From the NCBI GenBank assembly GCA_036507155.1, contig DASXQN010000005.1, positions 1-26,518 on the forward strand: a stretch of 26,518 nucleotides of DNA, given 5' to 3'. The position numbers and the translations under genes are program-made. The stretch's first letter is position 1. Every line of letters starts with the position of its first letter. Source of the stretch: Anaerolineales bacterium (GTDB lineage: Bacteria; Chloroflexota; Anaerolineae; Anaerolineales; Villigracilaceae). This document shows, one piece after another, positions 9,577-13,951 of this stretch. Below the pieces are notes generated by a model. The model did not search any database, was not told the DNA's origin, and saw nothing but the letters and a program-made list of their open reading frames with translations.

Positions 9577-9699
9577 GGATTGTGTCAAAAGCGTAGATTC
9601 CCAACCTGGTGCACGGCTGCCGCAGGGTCCCGAGCGCAGCCAGGCTGGCAGAGATTATATACCACCCTTTATTCAGTTTTCCGGTGGGGCCGGCCGCGC

Positions 9700-9960
9700 T
9701 CAGCGCGGCTCAACCACCAATTTGATCGCCGTACGGACCTTGTCCTCGATCTCCACGTCCACAAACTGCGGCACACACACCACGTCGATGCCGTCGCTCT
9801 TCAGGTAGCCGGTGGCCAGCACCAGAGCCTTGACCGCTTGATTGACCGCTCCGGCGCCGATGGCTTGCACTTCAGCGTGTTTGTGTTCGCGCATCACACC
9901 TGCTATCGCCCCCGCGACCGCGGCAGTGCGGGAGCTGGCAGAGACCTTGATCATATCCAT
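9700..9960 (-). CDS. spoVS: Stage V sporulation protein S family protein
   Basis: IKVSASS...AVAGAIAG...QAIGAGAVNQAVKA; GGGAGG RBS before ATG 9960. Confidence 0.93.
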   Translation of the reverse strand: MDMIKVSASSRTAAVAGAIAGVMREHKHAEVQAIGAGAVNQAVKALVLATGYLKSDGIDVVCVPQFVDVEIEDKVRTAIKLVVEPR

Positions 9961-9974
9961 GATGAGCCTCCCAC

Positions 9975-10430
9975 TATTCAATGAAGGGGCGCTTATTGAA
10001 ATTGTACAGGATTCAATTGTGGCTTTCAAGCAGTATCTTTATGGGATATGTATGGATGTAGTAATCTTAGTAGGGCCTGTGGATACTGTGGAGAACGCTC
10101 GCCGGCCCCAAGGGATGGGATCGGATCGAAGGCCGCCCCCATACCTTCCGCTGGTTGCCGTTTGTCGGACAGCCTTTGTTTGTGGAGAAACTCCTGTAAC
10201 TTTCGATCGGTGATCCGAGATTCTCGCACCCCTCCATATTTCGGCAAACTAAAAACGCGACGCCCATATGTGGGGGTGGAGGCTCAGGACTCCCGGGTCC
10301 GATCCGCCCTTGAAAAGCCATATTGTCCACAAACTGCGGTGGTTATCCACAGATAACCGCATGTTATCCACAATCGGAGTCGCCCGGCCGGCGCTTTGTC
10401 TGGACAAGGACCCCTATATGTGGGGTTCCG
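9975..10430. other. Candidate chromosomal replication origin (oriC) / DnaA-box cluster
   Basis: DnaA boxes at 10078-86, 10087-95, 10181-89 (minus; one mismatch each) and 10323-31 (TTGTCCACA), 10343-51 and 10364-72 (perfect TTATCCACA); the minus strand reads TTCTCCACA GTATCCACA GGCC CTA CTA AGA TTA CTA; adjacent DNA about 40% GC by hand count of two 60-nt lines. Confidence 0.75.
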
Positions 10431-10434
10431 AAGT

Positions 10435-10465
10435 GCAGATTTTGGATTTCTGATTGCTGATTGTG
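10435..10465. repeat. Degenerate heptamer array downstream of the four-helix-bundle gene
   Basis: gcagatt ttggatt tctgatt gctgatt gtg. Confidence 0.55.
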
Positions 10466-10472
10466 CCAGATT

Positions 10473-10832
10473 TCACTGCTTCAGGTGATTTCGGGCAGTT
10501 TTCACCGACGCAGTCAAGATCGCCACAAGCTCATTCGCTTCCTTGGTTAGCCCGTTGAGGCTTTCTGCAGACACAATTCCAGCTTCAATGAGCAATTCCA
10601 TCCAATATTGTGATTCGTCTGCTTCCTCCAGGGCAATGCTTGCTTTTGAGATGAAATCGGGCTTTGAACGGGCCCGGCAGGCGGAGCGATAGTTAGCTCC
10701 CACGGAGGTGCCCGAGCGGAGAAGCTGATTCCCGATCACATTGGCCGTCTTTGAGGCCGGCAGCGCCTCCACCACGCGGATAGCTCGCAATCCAAATTGT
10801 TTTGTCCGGGCTTTGAGTTCTTCTGCATTCAT
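10473..10832 (-). CDS. Four helix bundle protein (23S rRNA IVS protein / bAvd-like family)
   Basis: QLLRSGTSVGANYRSACRARSKPDFISKASIALEEADESQYWMELL; GGGAGG RBS before MNAEEL. Confidence 0.92.
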   Translation of the reverse strand: MNAEELKARTKQFGLRAIRVVEALPASKTANVIGNQLLRSGTSVGANYRSACRARSKPDFISKASIALEEADESQYWMELLIEAGIVSAESLNGLTKEANELVAILTASVKTARNHLKQ

Positions 10833-10850
10833 AATATTCCTCCCTGGTTC

Positions 10851-10908
10851 CAATCATAAATCCCGAAGGTGCTGGTGTTCTTCCAGCTAAAATCACAAAT
10901 CAACAATT
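10851..10908. repeat. Degenerate heptamer array upstream of the four-helix-bundle gene (opposite orientation)
   Basis: caatcataaatcc ... aaaatcacaaatcaacaatt. Confidence 0.5.
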
Positions 10909-11912
10909 CCATTGGCCGCGGCGACCTCGTCCAGAAGGATCTCGATCTCATCCAGATACTGATCCAGCCCCTGCAAACGGTCCTCGAAACCTGTCCCGAA
11001 CAGACCGAGCGCCTGGAACGCGGCCTGCCAGGCTCTGGCCTGCTCGCCCTGCAGGACGGCCGCAGCCAGGGTCCACGTGTAGACCAACGGCCAGATCGCG
11101 GTGCTCGCGTTCCCGCTCTCGAGCATGGCCCGGATGGCCTTTTCATAATAGTTCAAGCGCGCTGGATGGATGCGCACGTCGACGCGCGCGTCGCTGCCGG
11201 CCGCCGCGAACGCCATCTTCCAATCCGAGAGCCACTCTTCTATGCTGGCCGGCTCCAACGAGGAGGCGCCCAGCAGCCCGATCAGACCCGCTTGCAACCC
11301 CGGACGTTCGAGCGCTTCGGCTCGCGCGGGAAATTCGAGCAGCAGCCGGCGCTCCGCGATCGGCGGTCCGCTCAGCTCCGCCACGGCATTGGCCGCCAGG
11401 TAGAGCGCCTGCAGGTATTGAATCACTTCGCCTGCGCCGACCGGCGCGCCCGCGTTCAGCATCAGTGGGGTCCAGTGCTTGCGCGCCTGGGTGTACAGGG
11501 TACGGCAGCGCTGCAGGGTCAGCGGTGCCTGTTCAAATTCGAAGCCGGCCCGCAGGCTGGCCTGCACAAAATCGAAGAATCTTTCGCGCTCGTACAGGAG
11601 CAGCGGATCGTACATCTCGTAGCCAAGCCACGGGTCGCCGCGCAGCTCACGCGGCGACTTGAACTCGTCCTTCGAGCGGCGCATGAGATCGACATGGATA
11701 TCCGGGCTGAGTATGATGAAAGAGCGGGGTTGCGCGGGTGGCCGTTTGTACACGAAGACCAGGTCGATGTCCGCTGTGCCGCCCAGCAGCGGATCGCGGT
11801 CCGTGAGCAGCGAACCCGTCAGGTAGGCCGCGATGATGTCTTTGTCGTTGTAGGCCCGCTCCTGGGCCGTCTCTTTGGCGATGCGGATGAGCGACTCGCG
11901 TGTCACGCGCAT
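10893..11912 (-). CDS. Hypothetical protein with a Pol-beta-like nucleotidyltransferase N-terminal domain and a helical C-terminal domain
   Basis: AYLTGSLL...ADIDLVF and a later HVDL fit the G[S]...DxD...D signature; C-terminal half looks helical. Confidence 0.65.
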   Translation of the reverse strand: MRVTRESLIRIAKETAQERAYNDKDIIAAYLTGSLLTDRDPLLGGTADIDLVFVYKRPPAQPRSFIILSPDIHVDLMRRSKDEFKSPRELRGDPWLGYEMYDPLLLYERERFFDFVQASLRAGFEFEQAPLTLQRCRTLYTQARKHWTPLMLNAGAPVGAGEVIQYLQALYLAANAVAELSGPPIAERRLLLEFPARAEALERPGLQAGLIGLLGASSLEPASIEEWLSDWKMAFAAAGSDARVDVRIHPARLNYYEKAIRAMLESGNASTAIWPLVYTWTLAAAVLQGEQARAWQAAFQALGLFGTGFEDRLQGLDQYLDEIEILLDEVAAANGIVDL

Positions 11913-11923
11913 GCGGACCCCGC

Positions 11924-12565
11924 TCAGGCCTCAGCCAGGGGGAGGCTCGGTTGAAACGGACTCAGGCCCAGGGCCTCGCGGATGCGGTTTTCCACCAGGT
12001 CGAGATGTTCCTCGTTGTCGACGAAGTTCAGGCGGTTGGTGTCGATCGTCAGGACCGGCGTGTGGTCGAATGGCAGCGCAAAGAACTCCTCGTAGGCCCG
12101 GTTGAGATCGGCAATGTAATTCCGTTCCATCTGCCGCTCGTACGGGCGGTCGCGCAGCGTTATACGCTGCATGAGCGCATCCGTTTCCGCGCGCAGGAAG
12201 ACGATCAGGTCAGGCTTCGGGATCTTCTCTCCGAGGGCCTCATGGACCCGGTCGTACATGGCGAGTTCTTCGCCTTTCAAATTGATGCGGGCGAACAGGG
12301 AGTCCTTGGCGAACGTGTAATCGGCCAGCACGTTCTTGCCGGCCGCCAGCATGTCCGGCACGGTCTTGTTCTGCTGGCGGTAACGGCTGAGCAGAAAGAA
12401 GATCTGTGTTTGGAAAGCATAACGTTCGCGGTCGGAATAAAAGTCCGACAGGAACGGATTCTCTTCAAAGATTTCCAACAGGAGATCGGCCGCAAAGCGA
12501 GGCTGCATGAGGCGAGCCAGCGTCGTCTTGCCTGCGCCGATCACTCCTTCGATCGCAACATACAT
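11924..12565 (-). CDS. dgk: Deoxynucleoside kinase, dGK (Dgk-like) type
   Basis: YVAIEGVIGAGKTTL, ENPFLSDFY, QIFFL, ADYTFAKDSLFA (DY in place of DRS), RITLRDRPYE; GGAG RBS before ATG 12565. Confidence 0.85.
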   Translation of the reverse strand: MYVAIEGVIGAGKTTLARLMQPRFAADLLLEIFEENPFLSDFYSDRERYAFQTQIFFLLSRYRQQNKTVPDMLAAGKNVLADYTFAKDSLFARINLKGEELAMYDRVHEALGEKIPKPDLIVFLRAETDALMQRITLRDRPYERQMERNYIADLNRAYEEFFALPFDHTPVLTIDTNRLNFVDNEEHLDLVENRIREALGLSPFQPSLPLAEA

Positions 12566-12610
12566 CGTTGTCTCCAGGTTGGGCTGCGCCAAGGATACCA
12601 TAATTACGTT

Positions 12611-12745
12611 TGTCATTGCGATCGCGAAGCACGTGTGCCCGCAAGGGTATCCCGGAGCGATCCCTTCGTCTTCGCTCAGGGCAGGCTCCGGGAGCGAAGT
12701 CGAAGCGGCGGCGATCGCGAAGCATCCCGTAGGGAAGCAATCTCC
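12611..12745. repeat. Composite REP-like element, copy D
   Basis: TGTCATTGCGATCGCGAAGC start, internal duplication of gcgatcgcgaagc...atcccg, ends gaagcaatctcc. Confidence 0.85.
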
Positions 12746-12928
12746 TCCTAACAATCGGAATGCTGCGCATCCGCGACCTTGCGTTAATTCCTTGGCCGAG
12801 TGCGATTCTTGTACACGGACAACGCGGATGATACTGACCTTCACGGAAGAAACAAAAAGGGATCCGTGCCTTTCCGTATCGATCCGATTATTCCGTGTAC
12901 AGAGAATCCGCTCTGACCTCAAACCCGC

Positions 12929-12934
12929 TATAAT
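12929..12934 (+). promoter_or_regulatory. -10 element, probably leaderless mRNA
   Basis: TATAAT 6 nt before ATG 12941; no SD sequence. Confidence 0.55.
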
Positions 12935-12940
12935 CCGCCC

Positions 12941-13951
12941 ATGCCTCGCATTTGCATCGTGCCGCGCGTGGACGGATCGGGCGGCATGGCCTCCTTCCGC
13001 CTCAAGTTTGAAGACGGTCTGCACACGCGCGGGGTGGACGTCACCTATGATCCCGCGCATAATCCGGACGCGCTGTTGCTGATCGCCGGCACCCGCAACC
13101 TGCTCTCGTTGTGGAAAGCGCGGCGCCGCGGCACGCGCATCGTCCAGCGCCTGGACGGCATCAACTGGGTGCAGCGCGCGCGCTGGACCGGGCCGCGTTA
13201 TCATGTGCGCGCCGAATACGGCAACGCGCTGCTGGCTTTCATCCGTGCGCGGCTGGCGGACCGCGTGGTCTATCAGAGTCAGTTCATCCGGCGCTGGTGG
13301 GAGGACTGGTACGGGCCGGCCGCCGTTCCGGCGCGCGTAATCTTAAACGGCGTGGATTTGCATCGTTATGCGCCGGCAGGTTCCTCCAACCTGCCGGCCG
13401 ATCGTTTTCGTCTGCTGGTGGTGGAGGGCAGCCTGGCGGGCGGCCTGGATACGGGTCTGCGCGCCGCGGCCCGGCTGGCCGACCTGCTGTCGGAGAAATT
13501 CCCGATCGAATTGGTCGTCGCCGGACGCGTGGACGCCAGGCTGCAGTCCGACCTGGGTCGCCGCAGCCGCGCCCCTATCCGCTTCCTGGGTTTCGTGCCG
13601 CGTGAGCAGATCCCTGAGCTGGACCGCTCCGCGCACCTGTTGTTTTCGGCGGAGATCAACCCGCCCTGTCCCAACTCGGTCATCGAGGCGCTGGCGTGCG
13701 GCCTGCCGGTGCTCGGCTTCGACACAGGTGCGCTCGCCGAGCTGGTTGCGGACGATGCGGGCCGGTTGGTTCCGTACGGCAGCGATCGATGGAAGCTTGA
13801 ACCGCCGGACGTGCCGGCATTGGTACAGCCGGCCATCGAGATCCTGCAGGACCAGCCGCGCTTCCGCCGTGCCGCGCGGGCGCGCGCCGAGGCCGCACTC
13901 GGACTGGACCCGATGGTGGACGCGTACCTTAAGACTCTTCTAGAGAATTAA
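12941..13951 (+). CDS. Glycosyltransferase family 4 (GT-B)
   Basis: VQRLDG, VVYQSQF, ILNGVDL, FLGFVP, PPCPNSVIEALACGLPVLGFDTGALAELV (EX7E motif). Confidence 0.9.
   Translation: MPRICIVPRVDGSGGMASFRLKFEDGLHTRGVDVTYDPAHNPDALLLIAGTRNLLSLWKARRRGTRIVQRLDGINWVQRARWTGPRYHVRAEYGNALLAFIRARLADRVVYQSQFIRRWWEDWYGPAAVPARVILNGVDLHRYAPAGSSNLPADRFRLLVVEGSLAGGLDTGLRAAARLADLLSEKFPIELVVAGRVDARLQSDLGRRSRAPIRFLGFVPREQIPELDRSAHLLFSAEINPPCPNSVIEALACGLPVLGFDTGALAELVADDAGRLVPYGSDRWKLEPPDVPALVQPAIEILQDQPRFRRAARARAEAALGLDPMVDAYLKTLLEN

Follow-up and report, generated by a model that had tools for sequence, protein, structure and literature searches.

Where does chromosome replication begin in a bacterium that carries the parts of an origin-unwinding module on a contig lacking dnaA? 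The question is posed by an intergenic gap in the window, by which we mean the whole stretch of DNA analysed here, the 26,518-bp contig C5 of a 2.89-Mb draft genome (G000). This draft genome, a MAG, comprises 531 contigs at 60.7% GC and is 87.6% complete (12% unassembled), with 3.4% estimated contamination; those of its relatives that bear names are MAGs of the Anaerolineales (Chloroflexota), several of them labelled Villigracilis.

We consider it highly probable that the gap, at 9961-10475, is the chromosomal oriC of this Anaerolineales bacterium and that the segment 10059-10095 is its basal unwinding system (BUS). Four things taken together lead to this reading: the sequence elements themselves, their single-copy conservation across the order, their homology with origins that lie next to dnaA in other families, and the co-location of skew and parS sites with the module in complete relatives. 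What is unusual about the candidate is its location. Its kind of origin is familiar, and origins away from dnaA are known in other phyla; for the Anaerolineae, we found no description of replication origins in the searchable literature.

A predicted unwinding module between spoVS and a four-helix-bundle gene

The gap and its surroundings contain the following features, in window coordinates.

9700..9960, minus strand: spoVS (Pfam PF04232, E 3e-35), the first gene to the left of the candidate origin
9961-10475: intergenic gap of 515 bp between spoVS and the four-helix-bundle gene
10029-10001, minus strand: consensus-like spoVS promoter, with -35 TTGAAA at 10029-10024, a 17-bp spacer and -10 TACAAT at 10006-10001
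10001..10058, minus strand: AT-rich stretch, the predicted unwinding region, running into the spoVS promoter
10059..10073, minus strand: DnaA-trios CTA CTA AGA TTA CTA; predicted bound strand plus, 3'-GAT GAT TCT AAT GAT-5'
10074..10077, minus strand: GC cluster GGCC, identical to the B. subtilis spacer (CCGG when read 3' to 5')
10078..10095, minus strand: tandem DnaA boxes of the BUS, TTCTCCACA at 10095-10087 and GTATCCACA at 10086-10078
10181..10189, minus strand: middle DnaA box TTCTCCACA, 94 bp upstream of the tandem boxes and in the same orientation
10231..10276, read on the minus strand: tandem pair of NrdR-type boxes, CCCCCACATATGGGCG at 10261-10276 and TGCCGAAATATGGAGG at 10231-10246, with a 14-bp linker
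10323..10372, plus strand: distal array of three DnaA boxes, TTGTCCACA at 10323, TTATCCACA at 10343 and TTATCCACA at 10364
10411..10426, read on the minus strand: single 16-bp NrdR-type box ACCCCACATATAGGGG, matching six of six critical positions, distal to the DnaA-box array
10476-10853, minus strand: four-helix-bundle gene (23S rRNA IVS protein family), right of the candidate origin
10896-11912, minus strand: nucleotidyltransferase-like gene P0001, right of the candidate origin
11927-13204, minus strand: deoxynucleoside-kinase fusion, right of the candidate origin

Read on the minus strand from 10095 to 10059, the module is TTCTCCACA GTATCCACA GGCC CTA CTA AGA TTA CTA. The two boxes directly abut, each with one mismatch to the consensus TTATCCACA, and the second box (9 bp) together with GGCC sets the first box 13 bp from the first trio. 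Published criteria for a BUS call for a DnaA box no more than 16 bp from at least three 3'-NAN-5' trios, with spacers peaking at 10-13 bp (PMC8287927). The first-pass annotation had described a textbook BUS at this site. The two boxes, the GGCC and the trios are all present as described, and the departure from the textbook lies in the trios: four of the five fit 3'-NAN-5', and the third (AGA, 3'-TCT-5' on the predicted bound strand) interrupts the run, so that in the window genome the GC cluster is followed by just two canonical trios in a row. At this third position, relatives carry ATA, TTA, CTA, AGA or CGA (top strand).

The same annotation had compared the site with the B. subtilis module and judged the match to be very close. 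The published table gives that module, 3' to 5', as AATAGGTGT TTAGGTGT CCGG GATGATAATGAAGATGAT (PMC8287927 supplement), in exact agreement with the annotation, and the window module written in the same direction, AAGAGGTGT CATAGGTGT CCGG GATGATTCTAATGAT, is a near-exact match to it. The B. subtilis BUS consists of boxes 6 and 7, a GC cluster, trios and an AT-rich 27-mer (PMC6669920, PMC8287927); the window shares the tandem boxes, the GGCC spacer, the 13-bp distance from box to trio, the first two trios (3'-GAT GAT-5') and an AT-rich stretch directly after them.

This AT-rich DNA, which had been put at about 40% GC, has 33-40% GC over 10000-10069 compared with 60.7% for the genome, and the trios together with the DNA just after them (10034-10073) have the lowest stability of any 40-mer in the 26.5-kb window, as calculated from nearest-neighbour free energies. 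The spoVS promoter within it is the sole sigma-70-like site in 9600-10900, is conserved wherever spoVS adjoins the module, and is followed by a GGGAGG ribosome site and the spoVS start.

DnaA boxes are concentrated around the module. Six of the seven window boxes with at most one mismatch fall within 10078-10372, a span of 295 bp, compared with 2.3 expected in the whole window, and nowhere else in the 2.89-Mb assembly do its 353 such boxes lie so densely. The distal boxes are spaced 20 and 21 bp apart and face in the opposite orientation to those of the unwinding module.

The second-best DnaA-box cluster of the assembly (C148:1646-1763) has four boxes with at most one mismatch, all in one orientation and within 100 bp. 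They are at the end of an open reading frame of 312 aa, and the origin model described below has no match there. It is possibly a DnaA regulatory or titration site.

Conservation of the module across Anaerolineales

In a BLAST comparison of the intergenic region with 40 relatives, similarity was concentrated in the stretch with the tandem boxes and trios, and the distal box array came next. The BUS pattern occurs exactly once per genome in nine of nine genomes of the window's family, and a reversed control pattern gave no match in those nine. When 22 origin regions from several families are aligned, the same layout recurs almost base for base: three inverted phased boxes, a CCCCCATATATGGGGG palindrome, a CCAAAATATGGAA motif, the middle box, two further palindrome-like motifs, the tandem boxes with GC cluster and trios, AT-rich DNA and, where spoVS is adjacent, its promoter. 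The distal three-box array aligns in all 22 with its 20-21 bp spacing, and the TCCACA column of the middle box is conserved. Across 30 aligned origin regions, the TCCACA of the tandem boxes is invariant or nearly so, and the trio columns CTACTA..A.TAC.A are invariant or at least 90% conserved.

Some loci keep the module without an adjacent spoVS (L008/L041, L016/L040, L036, L037, L023-L025 and L247), and it likewise occurs where the nucleotidyltransferase gene is not adjacent; it is thus not there for the sake of either neighbour. The first-pass annotation had placed the origin beside spoVS, and had proposed, as a check, to look for conservation in that position among relatives. The conservation is indeed found, and what falls away is any obligatory tie: the module is kept where spoVS is not adjacent and lies beside other genes as well, and we rejected spoVS as an obligatory neighbour.

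For a wider survey, we used a sequence-only model of 74 positions, R1, built from 30 origin regions, all of them from genomes without dnaA nearby. R1 matches 112 of 151 Anaerolineales genomes and 96 of the 116 of high quality, nearly always with a single match; the window genome has one. Four genomes assembled as one contig (G066, G038, G037 and G099) each carry a single copy of the module, on their sole chromosome. The strict BUS pattern had been a poorer guide in G037 and G038, where it gave only chance matches in coding DNA; the sites were located by a triple-box pattern together with R1.

That the module could instead be the origin of a secondary replicon or integrated element, a reading to which its place on a separate 26.5-kb contig of a MAG with some estimated contamination might lend itself, is scarcely credible given its position on the one chromosome in these four genomes and the ordinary housekeeping or cell-envelope genes that flank it in the window.

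Position of the module relative to dnaA

Pfam scans of all long open reading frames found no dnaA, dnaN, gyrB or parAB in the window, in agreement with the first-pass annotation, and an Rfam scan found no RNA families there. rpmH had been listed as missing too; no L34-like N-terminus occurs anywhere in the incomplete assembly, so its absence from the window carries no information. This genome carries dnaA at about 539-1900 of the 13.9-kb contig C407, ahead of rpsB, tsf, pyrH and frr. Around the gene, for which only about 400 bp of upstream DNA is assembled, there is no cluster of boxes. The roughly 1.2 kb between the dnaA stop and rpsB (C407:1900-3150) holds only low-complexity open frames, with no box cluster and no R1 match. 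As had been suggested as a check, we looked for boxes and trios at the dnaA flanks, and there were none in the window genome, G066 or G038.

Crossing the R1 match positions with the dnaA positions in the same genomes gave the following picture by family.

Families f2, f4, f6, f10, f13, f14 and f17: R1 match 1-3 kb from the DnaA AAA+ domain, on the same contig and the same strand
Family f1 (the window's family): 1.84 Mb (G066) and 604 kb (G139) from dnaA; on different contigs in all others
Family f7: R1 match 115-219 kb from dnaA
Family f15: R1 match 166 kb from dnaA (G038)
Family f9: 22 kb from dnaA (G047); on different contigs in the others
Families f5, f8, f11, f12, f16 and f18: R1 match and dnaA on different contigs

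In the window's family and nine others, the module is thus away from dnaA, at 22 kb to 1.84 Mb or on another contig; in most MAGs, uncoupling is read solely from the placement of the two on separate contigs. In seven families, R1 lands beside dnaA. The model was built on uncoupled origins alone, and this result makes the window element homologous to origins in the classical position. A complete origin beside dnaA, which the first-pass annotation had named as a finding that would count against an origin in the window, occurs only in other families, and there it is the same homologous module. At five dnaA-linked loci that we inspected (G037 at 4,313,374; G102, G027, G056 and G029), the R1 match falls about 400 bp past the dnaA stop in the same box layout, with phased inverted boxes just behind dnaA and the same palindromes in several. 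As judged from these sequences, dnaA and the origin are separated in part of the Anaerolineales, and sister families keep a homologous origin directly downstream of dnaA.

The order thus offers a natural experiment bearing on why the linkage of dnaA and oriC is usually kept: some families have the module beside dnaA, and in others the distance between the same two elements reaches 1.8 Mb.

Skew and parS sites in complete relatives

Within the window, GC skew is too noisy to inform, and the genome's own skew is not readable from a MAG of 531 contigs. We examined skew and parS sites in two closed genomes of relatives.

First, the window's family has a closed genome of 4,403,799 bp, G066, with the module at 505,301 in a five-box cluster, spoVS beside it, and dnaA at 3,068,050. 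A two-replichore step fit to its keto skew, with 48% of the genome sampled, places the origin at 500 kb and the terminus at 2.34 Mb (R2 0.41); forcing the origin to dnaA lowers R2 to 0.008. Over a contiguous 1.2 Mb, cumulative keto skew traces a V whose lowest point, at 498,897, is about 6 kb from the module, and AT skew turns at 536,778. The skew switch, which had been proposed as a check on the candidate, therefore maps in keto and AT skew to the module and not to dnaA. GC skew alone is less decided: between 240 and 800 kb its curve stays level and dips almost equally at about 500 kb and at 779 kb, the latter being the lowest point, and a step fit on it favours 780 kb, skew being weak in this clade. 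Between about 450 and 650 kb, the orientation of long open reading frames changes from mostly minus to mostly plus. In the contiguous 1.2 Mb, there are only two parS sites, at 475,608 and 476,298 (475608-476313), 29 kb from the module. By contrast, the 400 kb around dnaA contains no parS site and no DnaA-box cluster, and cumulative GC skew falls monotonically through it.

Second, a different family is represented by G038, a closed genome of 2,574,431 bp deposited with dnaA at its start. Its first 4 kb contains no DnaA box. The module, in a cluster of nine boxes, occupies 166.4-166.8 kb, preceded by homologues of the kinase and the nucleotidyltransferase, and two perfect parS sites follow at 172.9-173.0 kb (172926-173044), 6 kb from the module. 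Skew in this genome, seen over the first 400 kb only, is weak, without a clear minimum at the module and lowest near 38 kb. Directly beside the origin region is a 50-kb island (G038 C1:100001-150000, L256-L258) with 42% GC compared with 52% for the genome; it is probably acquired DNA that disturbs the local skew.

The parS sites in both genomes are consensus sites (TGTTTCACGTGAAACA). The window MAG has two imperfect copies only, on C271 and C104, and no perfect one.

The proposal of a dnaA-uncoupled oriC that accompanied the first description of the site is therefore supported by the conservation of the module, by the skew switch at the module in G066 and by bare dnaA flanks. These results bear on practice as well. 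They locate the replication start in the large and mostly uncultured Anaerolineales, which include abundant filaments of wastewater plants such as Villigracilis-type MAGs. Anaerolineales genomes are routinely rotated to dnaA; G038 is one such case, starting at dnaA even though its box cluster, module and parS sites are at 166-173 kb. Coverage-based estimates of growth rate (peak-to-trough ratio) and skew-based checks of MAG assembly both require a correct origin. The companion claim, that neighbourhood-based origin callers would miss the site, holds in a qualified form, as callers that use skew and box density would probably find the module in complete genomes. The catalogued origin of Anaerolinea thermophila UNI-1 (NC_014960) may be misplaced, a neighbourhood-driven miscall if the species belongs to the uncoupled group. 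The BUS listed for it, at genome position 420-460, is weak, with one box that has two mismatches and a 16-bp spacer (PMC8287927 supplement).

Predicted mechanism and alternative explanations

By analogy, we infer that DnaA binding, unwinding and firing take place at the module. Following the B. subtilis BUS model (PMC6669920, PMC8287927), DnaA-ATP would bind at all six boxes, namely the phased distal three, the middle one and the tandem pair. A filament of DnaA growing out from the tandem pair would cross the GGCC spacer onto the plus-strand trios (3'-GAT GAT TCT AAT GAT-5') and melt the adjoining AT-rich stretch that overlaps the spoVS promoter, at which the replicative helicase would then be loaded.

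The position of that promoter invites another explanation. DnaA also acts as a transcription factor in other bacteria, and a strong, conserved sigma-70 promoter of spoVS follows directly after the trios in a cluster that is far from dnaA; the cluster could accordingly be a DnaA-controlled spoVS promoter or a DnaA titration locus in the manner of E. coli datA and the B. subtilis DnaA-box clusters (DBCs), with the true origin elsewhere. We judge this very unlikely. Loci where spoVS is not adjacent keep the module all the same, sister families carry it downstream of dnaA, skew and parS co-locate with it, and neither the window genome nor G066 contains another comparable cluster or R1 match. To our knowledge, trios with an AT-rich stretch are features of origins and do not occur at titration loci. 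datA and the DBCs resemble the window in being clusters of DnaA boxes away from dnaA, but they have neither trios nor an unwinding stretch beside them, do not coincide with a skew switch and occur in addition to a distinct oriC; in the window genome, no such distinct oriC was found.

A further alternative, with still less to recommend it, is that the module is a non-firing relic of a former origin and that replication starts at an unrecognised site. It could draw on the non-canonical third trio, on the two proximal NrdR-like boxes that are degenerate in the window genome and on the unassembled 12% of that genome. Conservation of boxes, spacer and trios at base level over 18 families argues instead for ongoing selection; moreover, the G066 skew switch is at the module, and no alternative box cluster was found. 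Chromosomal oriC remains our preferred reading of the gap.

Comparison with other origins

Read as an oriC, the gap differs from that of B. subtilis in several respects. It is not between dnaA and dnaN and lacks the bipartite arrangement around dnaA, its third trio is non-canonical, NrdR-type boxes lie between its box arrays, and its predicted unwinding region overlaps the spoVS promoter. Close counterparts are the dnaA-adjacent origins of the sister families, which have a homologous module that fits the same R1 model and, as in the window, inverted phased boxes and CCCCATATGGGG-type palindromes upstream. Those origins follow the dnaA stop codon at a distance of about 400 bp; in the window, the position that dnaA has there is taken by the pair of deoxynucleoside-kinase and nucleotidyltransferase genes and also by the four-helix-bundle gene.

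E. coli oriC lies between mnmG/gidA and mioC, about 42 kb from dnaA. The candidate is like it in being uncoupled from dnaA and in having flanking promoters that fire away from or through the origin. The lone R1 box of E. coli with its spacer of 10 bp, its unwinding repeats (13-mers), its control by GATC and SeqA and its IHF and Fis sites were not seen in the window. The published BUS table lists E. coli oriC as a DnaA box followed by trios (PMC8287927 supplement).

NrdR-type boxes within the candidate origin

Palindromes also lie in the gap, between the distal and proximal DnaA boxes. A CArG-like reading of them (CCW6GG) found no match in the origin region and was rejected; an NrdR reading fits. 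An NrdR operator consists of two 16-bp boxes with the critical positions C4, A6, A8, T9, T11 and G13 and a linker of 15-16 bp (or 26-27 bp), and 14-bp linkers have been noted only at the T. maritima nrdJ promoter (PMC13584703). Three boxes matching all six critical positions occur in the 515-bp gap, compared with 0.08 expected. The tandem pair (10261-10276 and 10231-10246) is the sole pair of such full matches at 30-32 bp from start to start in the 2.89-Mb assembly.

The pair is conserved at the same position, about -181 and -151 from the module, in 24 of 36 origin regions, with a 14-bp linker in the window and in 20 of the 24, and one of 15 bp (31 bp from start to start) in the other four. 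In the alignment of origin regions, the columns conserved to at least 80% are exactly the six NrdR-critical positions. Two proximal NrdR-like boxes are degenerate in the window genome. Compared with described NrdR operators (PMC13584703, PMC12051234), the window shares two partially palindromic 16-bp boxes, the six critical positions and a genome-encoded NrdR; it differs in its linker of 14 bp rather than 15-16 bp and in its place within a predicted origin rather than a reductase promoter.

The nrdR gene is at C303:2657-3091, directly upstream of a ribonucleotide reductase gene. Upstream of nrdR, at C303:2541-2626, a promoter (TTGAAT-17-TACAAT) is followed, right behind its -10 element, by two NrdR-type boxes that each match five of the six positions, with a 15-bp linker; this is presumed to be the genuine NrdR operator of the window genome. 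On the dnaA contig, a box matching six of six positions (TACCCATATATGGGGG, C407:199-214) lies about 340 bp upstream of the dnaA start, with no partner of at least five of six positions at 30-32 bp.

From their sequence and conservation, the boxes in the candidate origin are likely to be bound by NrdR, and a regulatory role for NrdR in initiation is possible. If NrdR binds there, it would be an undescribed link between nucleotide supply and initiation; among the listed titles and abstract openings of papers that name both NrdR and oriC, we found no description of NrdR boxes inside an origin. More tentatively, and on balance doubtfully, the origin might be wired to dNTP supply, with dATP-loaded NrdR tetramers binding and bending origin DNA and so gating DnaA assembly or unwinding. 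This checkpoint reading draws on the tandem NrdR-type operator between the distal and proximal DnaA-box arrays, on the extra single boxes in the origin region and on the one upstream of dnaA. If true, it would amount to a direct nucleotide-pool checkpoint on initiation, in a clade whose origin has been cut loose from dnaA.

Genes beside the candidate origin

The kinase and nucleotidyltransferase genes to the right of the gap form a conserved pair that adjoins the origin region in two families, including the other family represented by G038 and G080. The kinase fusion is a protein of 426 aa with its kinase domain at 217-410 and an N-terminal half without assignment; the nucleotidyltransferase-fold protein P0001 has 339 aa and no Pfam or NCBIfam match. 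We considered P0001 as an obligatory neighbour of the origin and rejected it, as the module adjoins the gene, on its downstream side, in only 12-13 of the 80 loci that hold it.

Among the relatives examined, the four-helix-bundle gene (10476-10853) is present only in the window's genus (L004 and L005). In other relatives, the origin region is directly behind the nucleotidyltransferase gene, with no four-helix-bundle gene between the two, and the gene looks like an insertion at the origin edge.
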